Assembly (NCBI GenBank): GCA_044870295.1
Contig: JBIOYQ010000190.1
Coordinates: forward strand, 1-41,238
DNA: 41,238 nucleotides
Origin: Actinomycetota bacterium
GTDB lineage: Bacteria > Actinomycetota > UBA4738
Reading direction: 5' to 3'
The notes beneath the pieces are model-generated. The model ran no database searches, was not told the origin of the DNA, and saw nothing but the letters and a program-made list of their open reading frames with translations. The position numbers and the translations under genes were made by a program. Below are positions 2 to 9,239 of the stretch, in pieces. Each line of letters begins with the position of its first letter. Position 1 is the first letter of the stretch.

Positions 2-3000
2 GCCGAGCTGGCCGTCGCTGGCGGCTTCCTGACCATCCCGGTGGCCGCCGACGAGGAGATCCGCGGTCCCCTCCTCCTGGCCCGCTCCATCCTGGGCTCG
101 CCCGAGGGGGCCGCCGTCACCAGCGGCACACCGGCCGCCGCCGACATCGAGCGAAGCCTGAACGCGCTGTCCGGCCACGACGACCCCGGCCTGGACAGCC
201 TTCCCCCCGACCCGAAGCTCCTGCGCACCCTGGACCTGGCCGCCATCGCCATCCGCACCCTGACCTCGGCCCAGCCGGTGGCGCTGCTGGTCGACGACCT
301 GCAGTGGACCGACGACGACAGCCTGCGGCTCATCCGCTACCTCGTCCGCTCGGCCGCATCCAGCCCCTTGTTCTTCATGGCCGCGATCCGACCCGAGGAG
401 TTCGCCACCGTCACCGAGGCGGTGAACCTCATCGCCGACATGGAGCGGCTCGGGATCGTGCGGCGGCTCAAGGTCAGCCGGTTCACCCAGGTGGAGACCG
501 CCGAGTTCCTCCGCCAGCTGCTCGGCGGCAAGGTCGATCCCGGGAGCGCCGCCGCCATGCACGGCCAGGCCGAGGGCGTCCCCTTCATCGTCGAGGAGCT
601 GGCGCACGCCTACCGCGAGGGCGCGATGATCCAGGAGATCGACGGCACGTGGAAGCTGGCCAAGAACGCCGAGCGCCTGGTTCCGTCGGCCGTCCGCACC
701 CTGATCTCGCGCCGGGCGGCGCACGTGCCGGACGAGACCCGGGCAGCCATGGCCGAGGCCGCCATCCTCGGACGCCACTTCAGCTTGAAGGATCTCCAGG
801 CGATCAGGATCCAGCTCGGCGAGGGGGAGCCCACCATCGACGCGCTGGACGAGACCCTGGCCCCGGCCGTGGCCGGCGGCCTCCTGGTGAAGCACCCCAA
901 GGACGCTCCCGCCGACTACAGCTTCTCCCACGACCAGGTGCGCGAGTTCGCCGTCGCCTCCCTCCCGCCGGCGAAGGGGCGCGCCATCCACCGGGCCATC
1001 GTCGACCTGCTGATGGTGGGCGATCCCGCGCCGGAGAGCCTCCCGTTGCTGGCCCATCACGCGAAGGAGGCCGGGGACAGCGACGTCTGCGTCAAGTTCT
1101 CCATCCAGGCAACCCGCAACGCCCTGGCCGCGAACGCCCCCGAGGAAGTCATGCGCGTCATCGACGTGTCCCTCCCGCTGGCGTCCACCCCCAGGAGCGG
1201 CTGGCCCTGCTCCAGGCGCGCGACGACGCGCTCGACATGCTGCGCCGTTCCAGCGACCGACTGGAGGGTCTGGCCGAATTCGCCGCCCTGGCAGAAGCGA
1301 TGGGCGACGCCCACCTGGAGATGGACGTGCAGCTCCGCCGGTCGGCCGCGCTGCAGCTCTGTGAGGAATGGGACGAGGCGGCGACGCTGGCGCGGACCAT
1401 CCGCCGGCGGGCCACCGAAGGCGGCGACGCCAAGGCCGAGCTGGCGGCGTGCCTGGAGCTGGGGCAGGCGCTGCTGCACGCGCGCCTCGGGGAAGCCTTC
1501 TCCATGTCCGGCCACGACATCGATCTCGATGCGGCCGAGGAGGCTTACCTCCGCGCCGTCGAGCTCGCCGAACAGCAGGCCGACGTGCTGGCCGAGGCCG
1601 GCGCGTCCCGTGAGCTGGGCGTGATCCATATGGGACGGGCACGTGCATGGTTCGTCGAGCAAGCCCTGGCCGGCGAGCACATGCAGATCCTGGCGAGAGT
1701 GGCGGGCGGCGAGCGGTTGGAGGACATGGTCGCCAGCACACCCATCGCCGGCGACATTCGCGCCGCATCCGAGCGCATCGAGCACGCCCTGCGCCTCTAC
1801 GAGCAGGCCGGCGACCGGCGTGGCGCCATGGCCTCGATCATCGCCCTGGCCTACGTGAACTGGTCGCCGGACATCCACTTCGGGTCGGGGGCGGGGCGGC
1901 ACATCGAGGAGATCCGCCGCCTGGCCTCCCGCATGGACACGCTGACCAAGGAGAGCGAACGGTCCCTGGCCGAGGCCCAGATGCTGTACGGCGCCCACGT
2001 GTTCTCCCGGGCGAAGGTGGTGCCCGACCTGGCGATCTCCCGTGGCGCGGAGGCTCACCGGCAGGCCAAGGTCATCGGGGAGCGGCACCTGGAATTCCTG
2101 GCGGCGGGCGGGACGGCCATGGCGCACTTGGACGTCGGTGACCTGTCGGAGGCCGGCCGATGGGTGGACCTGGCTGCGGCGGCAGCCGCGGAGGCCCCAT
2201 CGCCGTTCCGAGCCCGGATGCTCGAGATGTGGCGCGGGTCGGTCCAGGCCGCGGAGGGTGATGTGCGCGGCATGCGGGCGCACCTCGAGCGGGCCGTGCA
2301 ACTCGCCACGGAGCAGGGGCTCCCCGCCGCCAGGAGCGAGACGCTGGCGCTTCTGGCGTTGAAGGCCGCGTCGTTCGGGGCGGAGCGCAACGACGAGGAG
2401 CTGCTGTCCCTGGCCGAGGCGGCGGCGAACGAGGCCAAGGCGTTGAAGGAGCCGCTTCCCGGGCACGCACCGTGGGGCGCCCAGGCCGACGCCGCTCTGG
2501 CTCACGTGGCACTGGCGCGCGGAGCTAAGGAGGAAGCCCTGCGATACGCCATGGCTGCGGTCGATCACCTGCAGTCGGCCATGCAGGAGGACCTGCACGT
2601 CGAGATCCTTCTGCCGGTGGCCGAGGTGCTCACGGTCGCCGGGCCCGAGGAAGGCCGGCAGATGCTTCAGTTCTTCCTTCAGGTGATGCTGGCCCTGACC
2701 GCGCAGCGCACCCTGGACGAGCAGACGCGGGTGCGATGGTTCCGGGGCCCCACGGGGAGCCGGCTGGTGCAGCTGGCCGGATCGCTCGACCTCATGGCTA
2801 TGCAGCCCGGCGACGGCGACGCCGGCCCTGCACTGGATGACGCCGACGTGCAGCTGTTGAAGGCATTGACCGAGGGCCTGACCAATCGGGAGATCGCCGA
2901 GCGCACGGGCCAGGTCGAGACCGAAGTGGCGCGCCGTCTCGCCGAGATGTTCGCCCGTCTGGGCACGCCGACGCGATCGGACGCCACCGCGTTCGCCTTC

Positions 3001-3018
3001 CGTGAACGGGTGGTGTAG
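2..3018 (+). CDS. Large STAND/AAA ATPase - TPR-like helical - LuxR HTH regulator (LAL/MalT-like); 5'-truncated by the window, with an apparent 1-nt frameshift at 1188-1192
   Basis: The frame of ORF 41..1624 is open from nt 2 and has a Walker B-like LLVDDLQWTD, a GVPFIVEEL motif and YSFSHDQVRE. After ...LASTP the protein-like sequence continues in the frame of ORF 304..3018 (QERLALLQARDD...) and ends in a LuxR-type HTH (LLKALTEGLTNREIAERTG...RSDATAFA). Walker A lies upstream of the window. Confidence 0.8.
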   Translation, partial: RAGRRWRLPDHPGGRRRGDPRSPPPGPLHPGLARGGRRHQRHTGRRRHRAKPERAVRPRRPRPGQPSPRPEAPAHPGPGRHRHPHPDLGPAGGAAGRRPAVDRRRQPAAHPLPRPLGRIQPLVLHGRDPTRGVRHRHRGGEPHRRHGAARDRAAAQGQPVHPGGDRRVPPPAARRQGRSRERRRHARPGRGRPLHRRGAGARLPRGRDDPGDRRHVEAGQERRAPGSVGRPHPDLAPGGARAGRDPGSHGRGRHPRTPLQLEGSPGDQDPARRGGAHHRRAGRDPGPGRGRRPPGEAPQGRSRRLQLLPRPGARVRRRLPPAGEGARHPPGHRRPADGGRSRAGEPPVAGPSREGGRGQRRLRQVLHPGNPQRPGRERPRGSHARHRRVPPAGVHPQERLALLQARDDALDMLRRSSDRLEGLAEFAALAEAMGDAHLEMDVQLRRSAALQLCEEWDEAATLARTIRRRATEGGDAKAELAACLELGQALLHARLGEAFSMSGHDIDLDAAEEAYLRAVELAEQQADVLAEAGASRELGVIHMGRARAWFVEQALAGEHMQILARVAGGERLEDMVASTPIAGDIRAASERIEHALRLYEQAGDRRGAMASIIALAYVNWSPDIHFGSGAGRHIEEIRRLASRMDTLTKESERSLAEAQMLYGAHVFSRAKVVPDLAISRGAEAHRQAKVIGERHLEFLAAGGTAMAHLDVGDLSEAGRWVDLAAAAAAEAPSPFRARMLEMWRGSVQAAEGDVRGMRAHLERAVQLATEQGLPAARSETLALLALKAASFGAERNDEELLSLAEAAANEAKALKEPLPGHAPWGAQADAALAHVALARGAKEEALRYAMAAVDHLQSAMQEDLHVEILLPVAEVLTVAGPEEGRQMLQFFLQVMLALTAQRTLDEQTRVRWFRGPTGSRLVQLAGSLDLMAMQPGDGDAGPALDDADVQLLKALTEGLTNREIAERTGQVETEVARRLAEMFARLGTPTRSDATAFAFRERVV

Positions 3019-3022
3019 CGAA

Positions 3023-3754
3023 GTGCTGAAGGCGCGGGTCGACCGGCACAAGTGCGTGGGAGCGGGCAACTGCATCACCATCGCCCCGACCGCGTTCGAC
3101 TGGGTCGAGGGGGACTACGGCAAGGCCGATGTGCTCGACGTATCCACCATCGAGGAGGAGCAGCTCCGCGAGGCCGCCCTCTCCTGCCCCACCAGCGCCA
3201 TCGTGATCGAGGAGGTGGACCAGCTCCTCCCGTGGCAGCTGCGCGGGAAGTCGGCGACGCGCCGGGTGCAGCGGACGTTCATGTTCACCGACATCGTGAA
3301 GTCCACGAACCTGGTGGAGGCGCTCGGAGACGAGGCCTGGCAGGGCGTGCTGCGATGGCACGACGAGACACTGCGATCCCAGTTCGTGGCGCACCGGGGT
3401 GACGAGGTGGCGGCCACCGGCGACGGCTTCTTCGTGGCGTTCGAGTCGCCGGACGAGGCCCTGGCCTGCGCCGTGGCCATCCAACGCAAGCTCGCCGAGC
3501 ACCGCCAGACCGCCGGGTTCGCCCCACCGGTGCGGATCGGATTGCACGCCGCCGGCGCCACCCAGGTGGGCCGAAACTTCAGCGGGAAGGGCGTGCACGA
3601 GGCCTCGCGCATCGCCGGGCTCGCCGGGGGCGGTGAGATCATCGCCAGCCGGGAGACGGCGACGGGCGGCCGGTTTCCGATCTCCGAGCCACGAACGGTG
3701 GAGCTCCGCGGGTCCTCCGAGCCCGTCGAGGTCGTCACCGTCGACTGGAAGTAA
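3023..3754 (+). CDS. Ferredoxin (monocluster, 3Fe-4S-like) fused to a class III nucleotidyl cyclase domain
   Basis: GTG start 4 nt after the upstream TAG. The N-terminus has CVGAGNC...CPTSAI. The C-terminus has FTDIVKST, TGDGFFVAF, VRIGLH and VHEASRI cyclase motifs. Confidence 0.85.
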   Translation: MLKARVDRHKCVGAGNCITIAPTAFDWVEGDYGKADVLDVSTIEEEQLREAALSCPTSAIVIEEVDQLLPWQLRGKSATRRVQRTFMFTDIVKSTNLVEALGDEAWQGVLRWHDETLRSQFVAHRGDEVAATGDGFFVAFESPDEALACAVAIQRKLAEHRQTAGFAPPVRIGLHAAGATQVGRNFSGKGVHEASRIAGLAGGGEIIASRETATGGRFPISEPRTVELRGSSEPVEVVTVDWK

Positions 3755-3780: not shown

Positions 3781-4071
3781 ATGTTCGCACGAGTGACGGT
3801 GGTGCAGGGCTCGCCCGACCGCTACGACGACGCGGTCAGGGTCATCAACGAACGGGCCGTGCCGGGAGCCAAGCAGATTCCCGGTCTCGTGGCCGGGTAT
3901 TGGGCGGCCGACCGGTCCTCGGGCAAGGTCGTGACGTTCGCCGTCTTCGAGACGGAGGAAGCGCTGAAGGCCAGCGAGGAGCAGGTTCGCGAGCTTCGGG
4001 AGCGTTCGGTCGCCGAGGCGGGCGGGCAGATCGTCAGCGTCGAGACCTACGAGATCGTCGGTCAGGCCTGA
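3781..4071 (+). CDS. Small dimeric alpha/beta-barrel (ABM-like) protein
   Basis: GGAGG RBS upstream. The 96-aa MFARVT...PG..AGYW...GK....VFETEEAL pattern is typical of DABB/ABM-like proteins. Confidence 0.65.
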   Translation: MFARVTVVQGSPDRYDDAVRVINERAVPGAKQIPGLVAGYWAADRSSGKVVTFAVFETEEALKASEEQVRELRERSVAEAGGQIVSVETYEIVGQA

Positions 4072-5006
4072 GCCTCTCCAAGGTCCCGCTCCCGAACGAC
4101 GCATCTGAACCCGATATGGGTGGTCGAGGTGTCGACCGTCTCGCTCTGCCGGGCCGCGGGGCGATAGCGGAGACAGTAGTTCGGCGCGCAGAGGTGTGAG
4201 CCCCCCTTGATCACTCGCCGAGGGATGTGTGCGCCGGGCTGCCCGGGGACCAGGCTCTCCTCCGCGGTCACGCCGCCGGGTCGCTCCGGCGCGCAGCAGA
4301 CGGGCTTCGGCTGGTCGAGTCGGAACGACCCGAAATAGTCTGCGGTCCACTCCCACACGTTGCCGGCCATGTCGTACAGCCCATAGCCGTTCGGCGGGAA
4401 GCTCTTCACCGGCGACGTCCCCTCGAATCCGTCAGTCTCGAGGTTCTGCCAGGGGAACTCGCCCTGCCACGTGTTGGCCATCATCTTGCCCTTCGGCGTG
4501 AATTCGTTTCCCCAGGTGAACGCGGCCTGCTCGAGTCCCCCACGCGCCGCGAACTCCCACTCGGCTTCCGTGGGCAGCTCCTTGCCCGCCCACACCGCGT
4601 AGGCCTCGGCGTCCTCGAACGCGACATGGGTGACGGGGTGCCTCTCCCGCCCGTTGAGGTCGGTTCGGGGACCCTCCGGACGGCGCCACTCGGCGCCCGG
4701 GGTGTAGGTCCACCAGTTGGAGACATCGCGCAGGTCCACCGGACCCGCCGCCTTGCGGAACACGAGCGAACCGGAGACGAGGAGGTCCGGATCCGCGTCC
4801 GGGTACTGAGCCGGGTCGAGCGGTCGTTCGGCAACGGTCACGTACCCGGTCGCCGCCACGAAACGCCGGAACTCGGCCACGGTCACCGGGTGCTCGTCGA
4901 TCCAGAACGGGTCGACCGTGGCGCTATGAACCGGCGCTTCCTCCGGGTAGAAGTCCTCCGACCCCATGAGGAAGGTGCCACCCGGCATGCGAATCATGTC
5001 GTTCAT
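4062..5006 (-). CDS. Formylglycine-generating enzyme (SUMF1/FGE family sulfatase maturase)
   Basis: LPTEAEWEFAARGG, NGYGLYDMAGNVWEW, GGSHLCAPNYCLRYRPAAR and HIGFRC motifs; directly downstream of the sulfatase. Confidence 0.95.
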   Translation of the reverse strand: MNDMIRMPGGTFLMGSEDFYPEEAPVHSATVDPFWIDEHPVTVAEFRRFVAATGYVTVAERPLDPAQYPDADPDLLVSGSLVFRKAAGPVDLRDVSNWWTYTPGAEWRRPEGPRTDLNGRERHPVTHVAFEDAEAYAVWAGKELPTEAEWEFAARGGLEQAAFTWGNEFTPKGKMMANTWQGEFPWQNLETDGFEGTSPVKSFPPNGYGLYDMAGNVWEWTADYFGSFRLDQPKPVCCAPERPGGVTAEESLVPGQPGAHIPRRVIKGGSHLCAPNYCLRYRPAARQSETVDTSTTHIGFRCVVRERDLGEAQA

Positions 5007-5021
5007 GCCTGCCCCCGGGGC

Positions 5022-7364
5022 TCACTCCCGGGCCATCATGGCCATGGCTTCCTTCTCGAGGTCGATGAACTGGTCCCCCGAGACGTCGACGATGGCCTCG
5101 TTGATCGTGCCCCCGGTGAACGCGTACGGGGACTGGCCGGAATAGTCGTCGGTGATCGGCTCGGCCGGGTCCCTCCCGACGTTCAATCCCTCCCCCACCA
5201 GGGAGAAGTTGCCGGGCTGGGTCACGATGTGCCCGCTCCCGACCTCCTCGTCGTTGACGTACAGCGTCAGCGTTCCTTCGGTCGGCATCCCACCGTTCTC
5301 CTTCTCGAACGTGGCCGCCAGCACGACCTTGCCGAGGGGGACGTCCTTCGTCGATTCGACGGTCTGCACCTTGCTGCCCACGAAGTTGTAGACGTACTTC
5401 AGCCTGTGATCCTTCACGTACAGCGCGTGGCCGCCGAACCGCGCGCCGTGGGAGAACAGCACGCCCTGGGCATCTTTGGAATCGATCTCGACGCCCACGG
5501 CGATGCTGTAGCTCCGGTTCCGGATGTTGACCGCCGCGGACTCCGGAACCTCCGCCGAATCGGGGTAGTAGACGTACCGGTCCCTGGGCGGAGCCACCTC
5601 GGGCCGGCTCGGGTCGGCGAGCACCTCGACCGCCGTGGAATCGATGAGGGGCAGACCGTTGTACATGCCGGCCAGGTGGAACCAGTGGTTGATCATCTCC
5701 TTCAGCTTCACCGGATGCTCCGCGGCCACGTCGTGGCTCTCCGTGGGGTCCTTCATCGTGTCGTAGAGCTCCCACCGGTCCTCATCGAAGTGCCCCCAGC
5801 CGGCGATGGTGGGGTGCACGCTCACGGCCTTCCATCCCTTGTGCCACACCGCTCGTGATCCGAGCATCGAGAAGAAGGCGCTCTCCTTGGGGGTGGGGAC
5901 GTCGTCGCTCTCGAACGTCGAGCGGAAGCTGACGCCCTCCAGCGGGATCTGCGGGTAGCCCTTGACGACGTCCGGCATCTCGATGCCGAGAAGGTCGTAC
6001 ATCGTCGGCACGATGTCGGTGGCGTGGAGGAACTGGTGCCGGAGCTCGCCCCGCGCGGCGAAGCCCTTCGGCCACGAGATCACCATGGGATCGGCCACCC
6101 CGCCCTCGAAGTTGTAGCGCTTCCACATCTTGAACGGGGTGTTGAAGGCCCACGCCCACCCCACGGGGTAGTGGTTGTACGTGGCGGGCGAACCCAGCTC
6201 GTCCAGGTACTTCAGGTTGTCCTGGATGTCGTCGGGGATCCCGTTGAAGAACTTGTTCTCGTTGACTGAGCCGTTCGGGCCACCCTCGCCGCTGGCGCCG
6301 TTGTCGGACACGAGCACGATGATGGTGTTCTCGCGCTGGCCGGATTCCTCGAGGAAGGCCAGCAGCCGGCCGATCTCGTGATCCGTGTGGCTCAGGAACC
6401 CGGCGTACACCTCGGCCATGCGGCTGAACAGCCGCTTCTCGTCGTCGGACAAGGAGCCCCACGGCCGCACCACATCGACCGGGTTCCAGGGCTTCCCGTC
6501 GACGCTCTTCTCCTCGGCGTAGGGGTTGAGAGCCGAGAGCTCGGCCTCCTCGGGGAAGATCCCCATCTTCTTCTGCCGCTCGAACACGAGCTCCCGGTAC
6601 GTCTCGTAGCCCATGTCGAACTTGCCCCGGTACTTCTCGATCCATTCCTTGGGGACGTGGTGCGGCGCGTGGGTGGCTCCGGGACAGAAGTACATGAAGA
6701 ACGGCTTGTCGGGGGCGATCATCTTCGCATCCTTGATGAACTCGATCGCCCTGTCGGTGAGGTCCGTCGTCAGGTGGTAGCCCTCCGCCGGTGTCGACGG
6801 CTGATCCACGGGGTGGTTGTCGTAGACGAGGTCCGGATACCACTGGTTGGTCTCGCCCCCCAGGAACCCGTAGTAGCGCTCGAATCCGCGGCCGACCGGC
6901 CAGTTGCGCTTCGTCGATGCCAGGTTCATCTCGTCGGACGCGACGAGATGCCATTTCCCAAGCATGTAGGTGTTCCAGCCCCGCTCGCTCAGGACTTCGG
7001 CGATGGTGGCGCACTCGAACGGGATATGGCCGTTCGAGTTGGGGAATCCGGTCGTGGCTTCCGCGATGCAGGCCATCCCGTTGGTCGTGTGGTTTCGCCC
7101 CGTCAGCAGCGAGGAGCGGGTCGGTGAGCAGAGGGCAGTGGTATGCCAGTTCGTGTAGGTGAGACCCGTCTTCGCGAACGAGTTGATGTTCGGCGTCTCG
7201 ATCAGTCCGCCCCATGGCTCCATGGCGGAGAAGCCGACGTCGTCCAGGACGATGTACAGCACGTTCGGCGCACCCTCGGGCGCCACCGGTTGCAGGTACG
7301 GGTCCCAGTCCGGGACCGAGTCGCGTGAGTCGATGTTGATGGTGCCCTTGAACCGCTTCGTCAT
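5022..7364 (-). CDS. Arylsulfatase (Cys-type, large cytoplasmic AtsA/AtsD-like)
   Basis: PNVLYIVLDDVG, signature CSPTRSSLLTGR, GKWHL and SDNGAS. ATG at 7364 with a GGAGG RBS at 7371-7375. Confidence 0.93.
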   Translation of the reverse strand: MTKRFKGTINIDSRDSVPDWDPYLQPVAPEGAPNVLYIVLDDVGFSAMEPWGGLIETPNINSFAKTGLTYTNWHTTALCSPTRSSLLTGRNHTTNGMACIAEATTGFPNSNGHIPFECATIAEVLSERGWNTYMLGKWHLVASDEMNLASTKRNWPVGRGFERYYGFLGGETNQWYPDLVYDNHPVDQPSTPAEGYHLTTDLTDRAIEFIKDAKMIAPDKPFFMYFCPGATHAPHHVPKEWIEKYRGKFDMGYETYRELVFERQKKMGIFPEEAELSALNPYAEEKSVDGKPWNPVDVVRPWGSLSDDEKRLFSRMAEVYAGFLSHTDHEIGRLLAFLEESGQRENTIIVLVSDNGASGEGGPNGSVNENKFFNGIPDDIQDNLKYLDELGSPATYNHYPVGWAWAFNTPFKMWKRYNFEGGVADPMVISWPKGFAARGELRHQFLHATDIVPTMYDLLGIEMPDVVKGYPQIPLEGVSFRSTFESDDVPTPKESAFFSMLGSRAVWHKGWKAVSVHPTIAGWGHFDEDRWELYDTMKDPTESHDVAAEHPVKLKEMINHWFHLAGMYNGLPLIDSTAVEVLADPSRPEVAPPRDRYVYYPDSAEVPESAAVNIRNRSYSIAVGVEIDSKDAQGVLFSHGARFGGHALYVKDHRLKYVYNFVGSKVQTVESTKDVPLGKVVLAATFEKENGGMPTEGTLTLYVNDEEVGSGHIVTQPGNFSLVGEGLNVGRDPAEPITDDYSGQSPYAFTGGTINEAIVDVSGDQFIDLEKEAMAMMARE

Positions 7365-7481
7365 TGCAGACCTCCGAACTTGGCCGCTCGATCGGCTCAC
7401 CGCCGCCCGGACATACGACAATGCGAGCGGCGGGGGGCCACTCGCGTCACTCGAGAATGGCTCTCGCGAGTGAAGACCGCT

Positions 7482-9239
7482 TCATCCCGACGGGGTGATA
7501 CGAGCGTCTCGCCGCGTCCGTTCGATCGCCTCACGTACGGTGGGGAACACGTTGTCGTCGATGACCTCCACCGCCCCGGCTCGCCGCCACAGCTCCAAGA
7601 CGGGCGAACTCACCCTGGCCAGCGCCAGGACGACGCCGTCGCGCTGCAACTCCCCGCCGATCTGGGCCACCATGTCGGCTCCATCCGTGTCCGTCTGGGA
7701 CACGGCCTCCCCGTCGATCACCACGGTTCGCAAGCCTGGCTCGCCGGCGATCATCTGGCGAAGCTCATCGCGGAATCGGGTCGCGTCCGCGAAGAAGAGC
7801 GGACCGTCGATCCGCACCACCACGACACCGGGCGTGGTCTCCAGGGCCGCGCCGTCCCCTTCGGCAAGGTACGCCTGGGAGCTCTTGTCCCAACCCAGGC
7901 GGCGGACCGCCGGCTTGGACGCCCGGCTGATCAACGCAAGGAGCGACATGACCACGCCGATGAGAACCCCCTGGATGATGCCGAGGAAGAGGATTCCCAG
8001 CAGCGCACCCATGGAGAACACCCAGTCCGACCGGTTCACCCGGAAGTACCGACCCACCGCATTGAAGTCGACCAAACCCACCATCGAGTCGATGACGACC
8101 GCCCCCAGCGTGGCGCTCGGGAGGTTCTCGAAGATCGAGGCGAGGAACAGCAGCGTCAGGAGGATGAACAGGGCATTGATCAGTGACGCCATCTGCGTCT
8201 TCTGGCCGGCCGCATCGGCAACCGACGTCTTCGACAGGCTTCCGTCGGAGGCGAAGCCTCCCACGAAGCCGGCGGCTGCGCATGCGGCACCCTCAGCCAC
8301 GAGCTCCTGGTTGGGATCGATGTCGTACCGATGCTTGAGCGCCATCGTCCGACCGGAAGCCAGCGTCTCCGAGAACCCCACGAAGACGATCGAGAACGCG
8401 CCGGCGATCAGCGAAAGGATGTCGTCCCACGGCATGTGCGGCACACCCACGTCGAACAAGCCCGTGGGCACGTTTCCCGTGATACTCACCCCGTGCTTCA
8501 TCAGATCGAACGCGGTCACGGCCAGGATCGAGAGGGCCATCACGATCAAGGCTCGCGGCCACCGCCTGAGGAATCGCCGCATCAGCAGCAGCGCCGCGAG
8601 CGAGAGGGCACCCACGGCCAGGGTGACGACGCTCGTGTGTGGAAGCTCCTTCAGCGTGTCGATGAGCTTCTGGACGTAGGTTCCCTCGGTTTTGGTCACG
8701 CCGAAGAGCTTGTAGGACTGGTCGATGATGATCCCGAGGGCGAACCCGAGGATGAAGCCCGCCAGGACCGCCTTCGACAGGAAGTTCGAGACCCAGCCCA
8801 TCCGGAGGATGCCCAGGAGCACGTAGACGACACCAGTCACGAGCGCGAGCGCCGCCGTGACCGGCACGAACGCCGATGTCCCAAGGGCGGCCGAGCCGGC
8901 GATCGGAGCGACGACGGCCGCCGACACCGCCGCGACCGTGGCGCTCGGACCCTGCGCCAGCTGCCGCGACGTCCCGAAGATCGCGTAGGCGATGAGCGCC
9001 GCGAACGACGTGTACAGGCCGAACTGCACCGGCACACCGGCGAGCGCCGCGTACGCGAGGCCCTGGGGCACGAGCAACGCCCACACGGAGAGGCCGGCCA
9101 CCGCGTCGCTGGTCAGCCAGGATCGTTGGTACCGGGGAAGCCAGTCGAGGACCGGCACGAATCGCCTGATCCGGCCCGGGCGAACCGTGGACGCAGTTGT
9201 GCCCTCCTTCGTTGACGGTGCCCCGCGTCCGATGGTCAC
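7482..9239 (-). CDS. SulP/SLC26 family anion transporter with C-terminal STAS domain
   Basis: PQGLAYAALAGVP..FGLY, FGTSRQL..GP and NQEL motifs, many TM segments, and STAS GPLFFA...D.DG. Confidence 0.92.
   Translation of the reverse strand: MTIGRGAPSTKEGTTASTVRPGRIRRFVPVLDWLPRYQRSWLTSDAVAGLSVWALLVPQGLAYAALAGVPVQFGLYTSFAALIAYAIFGTSRQLAQGPSATVAAVSAAVVAPIAGSAALGTSAFVPVTAALALVTGVVYVLLGILRMGWVSNFLSKAVLAGFILGFALGIIIDQSYKLFGVTKTEGTYVQKLIDTLKELPHTSVVTLAVGALSLAALLLMRRFLRRWPRALIVMALSILAVTAFDLMKHGVSITGNVPTGLFDVGVPHMPWDDILSLIAGAFSIVFVGFSETLASGRTMALKHRYDIDPNQELVAEGAACAAAGFVGGFASDGSLSKTSVADAAGQKTQMASLINALFILLTLLFLASIFENLPSATLGAVVIDSMVGLVDFNAVGRYFRVNRSDWVFSMGALLGILFLGIIQGVLIGVVMSLLALISRASKPAVRRLGWDKSSQAYLAEGDGAALETTPGVVVVRIDGPLFFADATRFRDELRQMIAGEPGLRTVVIDGEAVSQTDTDGADMVAQIGGELQRDGVVLALARVSSPVLELWRRAGAVEVIDDNVFPTVREAIERTRRDARITPSG

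Follow-up and report, generated by a model that had tools for sequence, protein, structure and literature searches.

Class III nucleotidyl cyclases need a head-to-tail homodimer for activity. The subject here is a gene, termed Fd-CHD, that joins a cyclase homology domain (CHD) of this class to a single-cluster iron-sulfur (Fe-S) ferredoxin, together with the regulator gene that lies directly upstream. Both occur within a stretch of 41,238 nucleotides (nt), termed here the window, from an Actinomycetota bacterium of the GTDB lineage UBA4738 (assembly GCA_044870295.1, contig JBIOYQ010000190.1). An earlier reading of the same DNA, referred to here as the original prediction, took Fd-CHD for a soluble, self-contained sensor of redox state, iron or O2 that may make a product other than cyclic AMP (cAMP). 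The analysis described here leads to a different arrangement, to which we give about an even chance: that Fd-CHD is one half of a conserved two-gene signaling module, consisting of a STAND-type, large ATP-binding LuxR (LAL) regulator and the ferredoxin-cyclase, in which the state of the cluster is coupled to the outputs of both proteins.

The closest characterized relatives of the cyclase domain are Rv1900c (LipJ of Mycobacterium tuberculosis; PDB 1ybt, 1ybu) and Ma1120 (of M. avium; PDB 4wp3 to 4wpa, 5d0e to 5d15), which belong to the same cyclase subgroup. Rv1900c is described as an adenylyl cyclase in its PDB titles and in PMC4174876, and Ma1120 likewise in the accessible sections of PMC4215837, which also assign the roles of its residues K101, D157 and R168 and of A164, which stands in place of the usual Asn. 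Fd-CHD shares with both the two metal-binding Asp residues and the Arg and resembles them in fold (Foldseek TMt 0.86-0.91); like Rv1900c, it has His at the Asn position and has lost the Lys, which in Rv1900c is Asn. It differs from them in its partners, inasmuch as the domain accompanying the cyclase is a ferredoxin rather than the N-terminal alpha/beta hydrolase of Rv1900c, and inasmuch as it has a dedicated LAL partner. It also differs from Ma1120, which according to those sections of PMC4215837 retains the Lys-Asp pair, in having Ala-Asn instead (V, T, G or A with N or D among orthologs).

A ferredoxin likewise lies N-terminal to a class III cyclase in a set of 30 proteobacterial adenylate cyclases that receive a bioinformatic mention in the accessible part of Beltz et al. 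2016 (PMC4821796). In these proteins, exemplified by Rhodopseudomonas palustris Q132R4, six transmembrane (6TM), cytochrome b-like helices precede the ferredoxin and a class IIIb cyclase domain and, as far as that part of the source goes, they are known, like Fd-CHD, from sequence analysis only. They are membrane-anchored, class IIIb and proteobacterial, whereas Fd-CHD is soluble, 243 residues long, Rv1900c-like and paired with a LAL regulator. No six-helix cytochrome b-like anchor is present in Fd-CHD: the protein begins only 10 residues before its first cluster Cys (C11) and its homologs have the same length, so that there is no room for one. The original prediction's view of a soluble protein holds, and the architecture is conserved as a single gene.

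A link between class III cyclases and STAND regulators exists in mycobacteria, in proteins with the order CHD-NTPase-TPR-LuxR, which we take to be Rv0386, Rv1358 and Rv2488c; we know of no Fe-S module in any of these. In this CHD+LuxR subfamily, as described in the accessible text of PMC3466318, the cyclase is likewise tied to a STAND NTPase, a helical-repeat region and a LuxR-type helix-turn-helix (HTH), but is fused at the N-terminus of the regulator; in the present case the cyclase has a protein of its own, whose gene follows the HTH, and its attachment is predicted to run through the ferredoxin. The ferredoxin itself has counterparts in actinobacterial [3Fe-4S] ferredoxins (PMC6237146, accessible part; PDB 8amp, 4id8), which match the same Fer4_13 and Fer4_15 families and carry the same three-Cys motif with Ala. 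Those, however, are free electron carriers of cytochromes P450, whereas in Fd-CHD the ferredoxin forms one protein with an enzyme, shows unusually strong conservation and, by the prediction, is clasped by a TPR-like region. Finally, the TPR superhelices of LGN/Pins, in complex with Inscuteable, NuMA or Frmpd4, hold a partner within a concave groove, as is predicted for the ferredoxin; they are eukaryotic, functionally unrelated, devoid of NTPase or HTH, and bind peptides, whereas the ligand here would be a folded Fe-S domain. A full-text literature search, which lacked supplements and most subscription journals, returned neither a characterized protein with the architecture of Fd-CHD nor a cyclase shown to be controlled by an Fe-S cluster. 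In this respect the original prediction, which knew of no such protein, agrees with what was found within that scope, the nearest case being the one mentioned in the accessible part of PMC4821796.

The features of the two genes, all on the + strand, are as follows.

2..3018, + strand: LAL-type regulator gene (AAA_16 NTPase, helical repeats, LuxR-type HTH), delimited by its match to the ortholog L011; truncated at the 5' end by the contig start, with one frameshift.
1188..1192, + strand: run of five C, the site of the regulator's frame shift; relatives read through as ...ASTPQ(D/E)RLALLQ...
1474..2592, + strand: TPR-like superhelix, residues 25-397 of the regulator's 538-residue C-terminal piece (which is encoded by 1402-3015), from the predicted interface and AlphaFold2 (AF2).
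2833..3003, + strand: LuxR/NarL-type HTH of the regulator, from a family profile compared with DevR, NarL and GerE.
3023..3754, + strand: Fd-CHD gene, 243 residues plus stop, GTG start, 4 nt past the stop of the regulator.
3023..3220, + strand: single-cluster ferredoxin domain, residues 1-66, C11-x2-A14-x2-C17 ... C55-P56 (Fer4_13, E 4e-10).
3221..3268, + strand: linker, residues 67-82, with an LLPWQLRG motif that is nearly invariant in an alignment of 53 orthologs.
3269..3751, + strand: class III cyclase homology domain, residues 83-243 (Pfam PF00211; PDB and Foldseek matches).

That Fd-CHD is a genuine fusion, as the original prediction had it, is borne out by profile matches above the family cut-offs at both ends of one intact reading frame (unlike that of the regulator gene preceding it): 40.7 bits against a cut-off of 24.5 for Fer4_13 (E 4e-10; Fer4_15 also matches, at E 2.5e-7) and 29.6 bits against 21.9 for Guanylate_cyc (PF00211; E 6.4e-7). 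Among NCBIfam models the cyclase portion of LipJ (Rv1900c) scores best, at E 3.8e-29. The start at 3023 is favored over an upstream GTG at 3002 because homologs begin at the same position (of 121 aligned sequences, 82 have M as residue 1 and 32 have V). Nor is the joining of the two domains a matter of chance, given that a Fer4 family and PF00211 occur together, according to precomputed Pfam assignments, in 117 of the 120 best relatives (about 243 residues; 76-100% identity) among 3,078 proteins found at E <= 0.001 by a word-indexed search; homologs that are consistently two separate genes, which the original prediction had named as an outcome counting against it, are thus not what is seen. 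Within the 121-sequence alignment the three Cys, Ala14, Pro56, D90, D134, H192 and R196 are invariant, except in two rows truncated at the N-terminus. Carriers are metagenome-assembled genomes (MAGs) of Actinomycetota (including Gaiellaceae and Solirubrobacterales), Chloroflexota (Dehalococcoidia, Limnocylindria, Chloroflexia) and Acidobacteriota. Among 401 genomes sampled evenly across the window's phylum, 20 show a match to residues 1-243, the window's own genome included, and 14 of these fall among the 31 sampled relatives within its order (three of the 20, G336, G088 and G148, are flagged as unpublished). This count took only matches spanning all 243 residues, because a threshold of 1e-60 also catches paralogs with the cyclase domain alone (48 of 401 genomes). 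Two database variants carry additional sequence: P0123 (383 residues), with a C-terminal Pyr_redox_2/FAD segment, and P0276 (512 residues), with roughly 300 extra C-terminal residues that have no domain assignment.

What the original prediction overlooked is the gene next door. Eighty related loci were kept from a scan in which at least 291 of at least 599 matched stretches encoded a relative, and in 79 of these 80 tblastn places the regulator, a protein of roughly 1,050-1,100 residues, directly upstream of Fd-CHD on the same strand; the exception, L056, holds only 503 nt of upstream sequence. The spacing between the two genes was measured in 52 loci and ranges from -1 to +26 nt in all but two, where it is 43 and 64 nt. 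As a description of the fusion the original prediction stands; in treating the protein as a stand-alone sensor-enzyme it left this linked regulator out of account. Presence and absence go together as well: among genomes of the window's order the regulator adjoins a full-length Fd-CHD in all 14 that carry one, and it is also missing in 10 of 10 name-listed genomes that lack Fd-CHD. The C-terminal part of the regulator occurs in 63 of 121 genomes searched in this order (four of the 63, G456, G430, G088 and G416, are flagged as unpublished). In five database proteins (P0124, P0138, P0157, P0273 and P0275), moreover, a LuxR-type HTH and then the ferredoxin are read in one frame. Longer forms are rare: nine were found, and of these only P0273 and P0275 read from the HTH into the ferredoxin without a change of frame. 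Another of the nine, P0272 (1,202 residues), was considered as a clean full-length fusion and set aside, its regulator alignment ending at column 414 of 539; it is not counted as a fusion because a frame change is probably involved.

Downstream of Fd-CHD nothing comparable is seen. The window's downstream genes--a 96-residue open reading frame (ORF), a formylglycine-generating enzyme, a sulfatase and a SulP transporter--recur as neighbors in 0 of the 80 related loci and were ruled out as partners, and when all downstream ORFs are clustered the commonest cluster appears in only 18 of 75 loci. Neither a conserved redox partner nor an effector activated by a cyclic nucleoside monophosphate (cNMP) occurs among the neighboring genes of the related loci.

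The regulator's architecture is, by its domain matches, that of a LAL protein of the STAND type. Full-length orthologs have about 1,070-1,170 codons, an N-terminal AAA_16 domain (E 1e-16 to 1e-17, 62-66 bits) with the Walker A motif GEPGIGKT, a GerE-type HTH (27-32 bits) and no cyclase domain of their own. The window's copy, being cut by the contig start, matches AAA_16 only in part (30.1 bits against a cut-off of 32.6), and its HTH alone stays below the GerE cut-off (E 0.0036, 17.3 bits against 23.5), whereas a profile of the HTH family matches DevR (6.2e-9), GerE (5.6e-7) and also NarL. The full-length ortholog L011 aligns to positions 2-1195 of the window and, in a different frame, to 1174-3015; the change at 1188-1192 would amount to one base and may reflect either an assembly error or a real lesion in a decaying copy, and a metagenome scan for either allele of this site gave 0 matches. 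In several relatives (G478, G443, G447, G463, G471 and G477), too, the regulator gene is in two pieces or, in G478, has in-frame TGA stops; these split or interrupted genes may be MAG errors or may point to repeated decay of the module.

Between the NTPase and the HTH lies the region of interest for binding. Modeled alone, the regulator's C-terminal piece is all-helical (AF2; mean per-residue confidence, pLDDT, 90.5; predicted TM-score, pTM, 0.85), and its top fold matches in Foldseek are the TPR domains of LGN/Pins (E 1.3e-6 to 1e-4), although with low TM-scores of 0.27-0.51. The sensor domain of MalT, considered as a structural analogue, was absent among the Foldseek matches listed and was dropped in favor of the LGN/Pins type. 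Likewise discarded as members of the same regulator family were LAL proteins of the P0137 type, which carry a fused cyclase; only their HTH aligns (63 columns, probability 71%).

The structure of a complex was predicted from the C-terminal 538 residues of the regulator (window 1402-3015) and the 243 residues of Fd-CHD, using two 53-row alignments with rows paired in the same locus order. These 53 orthologs, which were taken from genomes of named species, form a more diverse set than the 121 sequences considered above (64-84% identity). The interface score, ipSAE, was 0.86 (0.84-0.88 over three runs) versus 0.00 for the best of three controls; of 157 solved complexes 116 score this high, as do 2 of 215 mismatched pairs, a calibration that holds only roughly here because self-made alignments were used. 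Contacts agreed between runs to at least 79%, and the pLDDT of the partner was at least 81. That the score derives from a memorized complex seems unlikely, inasmuch as we know of no solved complex between a ferredoxin and a TPR protein. On the side of Fd-CHD the predicted interface consists of residues 7-58 only; it includes the cluster loops C11-N16 and S54-S58 as well as P22, T23, D26 and W27, and the cyclase domain takes no part in it. On the side of the regulator it draws on residues 25-39, 85-89, 151-204, 229-233, 267-270, 305-310, 352-357 and 394-397 of the C-terminal piece--that is, on successive helices that are predicted to enclose the ferredoxin in the manner of a groove. The interface residues H159, R172, M194, G197, V200 and D397 are each found in 53 of 53 orthologs, and an LPGHxPW loop (G354-H355) also lies at the interface. 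The prediction supports binding of the ferredoxin by the regulator, and stops short of demonstrating it.

Residue 312 of the same piece (window 2335-2337) is Ser here. Lying one helical turn past the interface residues 308-310, this position might face the ferredoxin in the model.

By its motif the N-terminus of Fd-CHD is a ferredoxin of the [3Fe-4S] type, one that would presumably bind such a cluster. Its motif, C11-VGAGN-C17 ... C55-P56, in which Ala14 replaces the second Cys of 4Fe-4S ferredoxins, follows the pattern CXXA/GXXC(X)nCP given for [3Fe-4S] ferredoxins in the accessible part of Child et al. 2018 (PMC6237146), in keeping with what the original prediction had made of the missing middle Cys; it agrees with the Fer4 profiles as well. 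Ferredoxins of known structure from Thermotoga maritima, Pyrococcus furiosus and Desulfovibrio africanus are matched at E 5e-7 to 3e-5 (1rof at 5.4e-7; 2z8q; 1siz). Among the 53 orthologs C11, C17, C55 and P56 are each invariant and A14 is present in 51, and mean column identity over the ferredoxin domain is 0.82 versus 0.80 over the enzyme domain. Conservation extends into the linker, where L68, L69, P70, W71 and Q72 never vary and conservation of L73 and R74 reaches 90% or more; the pLDDT of this linker is low (55-60) in an AF2 monomer model based on the 53-row alignment (mean pLDDT 81.6).

The cyclase domain is modeled with a pLDDT of about 90 or more over most of its length (72 in one block). 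Its best matches of known structure are Ma1120 (E 1.1e-21; TMt 0.90, root-mean-square deviation 1.3-2.5 Å) and Rv1900c (E 1.1e-18; TMt 0.86-0.88). Residue equivalences were taken from HMMER alignments to solved chains (1ybt for Rv1900c) and from the roles given for Ma1120 in the accessible part of PMC4215837. As the original prediction had stated, the metal-binding Asp pair is present, as D90 (FTD) and D134 (GDG), and so is the transition-state Arg, R196, which is equivalent to R168 of Ma1120. Its three calls of substituted residues are correct as well: A130 occupies the Lys position (K101 in Ma1120, Asn in Rv1900c), N185 the Asp position (D157 in Ma1120, Asp in Rv1900c) and H192 the position of the transition-state Asn (A164 in Ma1120, His in Rv1900c). 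The pair A130-N185 corresponds neither to the canonical Lys-Asp pair nor to the Glu-Cys/Ser pair of guanylyl cyclases. D90, D134, H192 and R196, and also C149, are each found in 53 of 53 orthologs, so that the canonical transition-state Asn is present in none of these. Position 130, by contrast, varies among them (30 V, 11 T, 6 G, 4 A, 1 D and 1 S), as does position 185 (44 N, 6 D and one each of G, T and S); in the 121-sequence alignment the commonest residues at position 130 are V (71), A (25) and T (23), and Asn185 is present in 120. The adenine-selecting Lys occurs at position 130 in 0 of the 53 and 0 of the 121 sequences.

How unusual these residues are was gauged by an exhaustive search of representatives clustered at 50% identity, which gave 34,445 matches at E <= 0.001 and 339 at E <= 1e-30. 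Only 9 of the best 150 representatives have all three ferredoxin Cys; in others (domain content was scanned for 28 of the 150) a cyclase domain of this type, at 45-64% identity, lies behind TPR, AAA_16, BTAD, LuxR, FHA-FtsK or protein kinase domains. His stands at the Asn position in 131 of the 150. The Lys position is occupied by D (66), K (28), N (13), S (11), R (8), V (7) or H (6), and the Asp position by D (66), G (31), N (14), A (9) and others. On these alignments, then, His192 is a trait of the wider cyclase subgroup, common to Rv1900c, and not a peculiarity of Fd-CHD; and because Rv1900c has His and Ma1120 has Ala there, the transition-state Asn appears to be dispensable within this subgroup. 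The drift at positions 130 and 185 among orthologs disfavors a newly tuned base pocket.

Taken with the fact that the nearest characterized relatives are adenylyl cyclases, and that the genome contains 11 cNMP_binding matches, this drift favors a cyclic purine nucleotide as the product, most probably cAMP, perhaps with relaxed base selection. The suggestion that the substituted residues point to a product other than cAMP accordingly finds no support, given how common His is in the subgroup and how variable positions 130 and 185 are; nor is the parallel that had been drawn with pyrimidine cyclases of Pycsar systems backed, the best match to the PADLOC Pycsar models being a negligible one to PycC (E 0.004, 14.6 bits).

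What we infer for the module--cluster binding, catalysis and its product, true binding of the regulator, and effects of cluster state--would fit together as follows. The ferredoxin domain would serve as a docking piece, lodged in the groove on the concave side of the regulator's helical repeats, where the loops that bind the cluster fall within the interface; since those loops lie there, the state of the cluster (oxidized, reduced, damaged or iron-free) would alter how well the two proteins fit. The ferredoxin would at the same time tether the cyclase domain, taken to be catalytically competent, which is left free to form its head-to-tail homodimer and, as such, to make a cyclic purine nucleotide, most probably cAMP. 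A change of cluster state would thereby alter docking and hence cNMP output, regulator activity, or both, and in this way redox or iron status would bear on a second messenger as well as on the DNA-binding output of the regulator.

A more specific version, which we consider doubtful, would make the ferredoxin not a gate for the cyclase at all but a redox-sensitive protein ligand of the STAND factor. The cluster would lie where the ferredoxin meets the TPR sensor; invariant or near-invariant residues of the regulator would read its state or even complete it at the site left open by Ala14, the cyclase dimer would bridge two regulators, and a single switch would set both local cNMP synthesis and transcription. 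His159 lies inside the predicted interface, and a Cys at position 312, present in 50 of 53 orthologs, lies adjacent to it, off the list of contacts. To our knowledge, the signals sensed by large STAND/LAL regulators are mostly not known.

Several observations weigh against a two-gene module of this kind. Conserved target genes did not emerge. The complex score measures how confident the model is in its own prediction, is only roughly calibrated for such alignments, and was obtained from a construct that left out the N-terminal half of the regulator; within the monomer model the ferredoxin domain itself reaches a pLDDT of only 58-72. Conservation on the regulator side speaks for the interface, but modestly: residues at least 90% identical make up 36% of the interface versus 23% of the rest (Mann-Whitney p 0.014). 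Within the ferredoxin domain, interface and non-interface positions are equally conserved (0.83 versus 0.79). With His in place of the transition-state Asn and the adenine-binding Lys missing, cyclase activity may be low. Lastly, because the regulator copy in the window is frameshifted and cut by the contig end, the window's own module may not work.

An alternative that we regard as unlikely, though it keeps most of the original prediction, is that Fd-CHD is a stand-alone cyclase gated by redox state, O2 or iron: the ferredoxin would act within its own polypeptide, separate cNMP-binding proteins would read the product, and the regulator would merely be co-transcribed or would control the operon, without binding. 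The fusion itself and the invariant linker motif LLPWQLRG do fit intramolecular signaling; the 11 cNMP_binding matches would supply the readers; and the same cyclase subgroup is fused to many other sensor domains. This explanation leaves unaccounted for, however, the strict adjacency of the regulator (79 of 80 loci), the way the two genes are present or missing together, the proteins in which HTH and ferredoxin are read in frame, and the contrast of 0.86 with 0.00 in the complex prediction.

Quite unlikely, in our estimation, is that Fd-CHD is a co-regulator rather than an enzyme, with the cyclase domain serving mainly as a nucleotide-binding dimerizer that bridges two regulators by means of the ferredoxin heads and with cNMP synthesis being marginal. 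There is a precedent of sorts in MalT, whose activity enzymes such as MalY, Aes and MalK control by binding to it. The non-canonical residues at the Lys and Asn positions, the drift of base-contacting positions among orthologs, and an interface that leaves the cyclase domain free for dimerization would all suit such a role. Yet the invariance of D90, D134, H192 and R196 (53 of 53 each) suggests selection on catalysis, and two adenylyl cyclases, Rv1900c (His) and Ma1120 (Ala; accessible part of PMC4215837), likewise do without the transition-state Asn.

Far less probable is an ordinary electron-transfer ferredoxin that serves a metabolic enzyme, such as a partner of the P450 type, and is fused to a cyclase incidentally. 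It is true that P450 ferredoxins of actinobacteria share the Fer4_13, CxxAxxC...CP type of this domain, and that a Pyr_redox_2 segment follows the cyclase domain in the representative P0123; but no redox partner gene is conserved nearby, the ferredoxin is as conserved as the enzyme domain, and the face bearing the cluster is predicted to be buried in the regulator. We give least credence to an anti-phage system composed of a STAND NTPase and a Pycsar-like cyclase: although STAND NTPases with TPR sensors are common in defense systems, and weak matches to PycC and, in one regulator ortholog, to BrxC_BrxD (E 0.0015) exist, these fall far below the matches to housekeeping-type cyclases, no gene for a cNMP-activated effector is linked, the partner regulator ends in a DNA-binding HTH, and 63 of the 121 genomes searched in the order carry the module. 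With PycC matched no better than E 0.004, this reading was dropped.

The window spans an entire contig of a MAG of 2.54 Mb (224 contigs, 91% complete). With 15 cyclase-domain matches in addition to the 11 cNMP_binding matches, cNMP signaling is strongly expanded for a genome of 2.5 Mb. Two paralogs of about 660 residues (G000 C182:24305-24808, L002; and C104:9119-9625, L003) have a TPR-rich N-terminus and a cyclase domain 57% identical to that of Fd-CHD; a kinship between their TPR regions and the regulator's sensor was considered and rejected (BLASTP E 0.034; hhalign probability 5.5%). The genes that follow Fd-CHD in the window are these.

3781-4071, + strand: 96-residue ORF, 27 nt downstream of Fd-CHD, matched by no Pfam family at E <= 0.001 and absent from the 80 related loci.
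4062-9239, - strand: sulfatase cluster, unlinked to the ferredoxin-cyclase in other genomes, with the three members below.
4062-5006, - strand: formylglycine-generating enzyme.
5022-7421, - strand: arylsulfatase, 799 residues, with a C-terminal Laminin_G_3-like part.
7482-9239, - strand: SulP/STAS sulfate permease.

If the two-gene module of regulator and ferredoxin-cyclase operates as proposed, then the object held by a STAND sensor would be a folded Fe-S domain, and redox or iron status would be linked through it to transcription as well as to a second messenger. Abundant uncultured soil lineages frequently carry the module, which may be a common means by which soil bacteria read swings in oxygen and redox conditions. 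It may also help to explain why, in mycobacteria, cyclases are linked to STAND regulators of the LuxR type.

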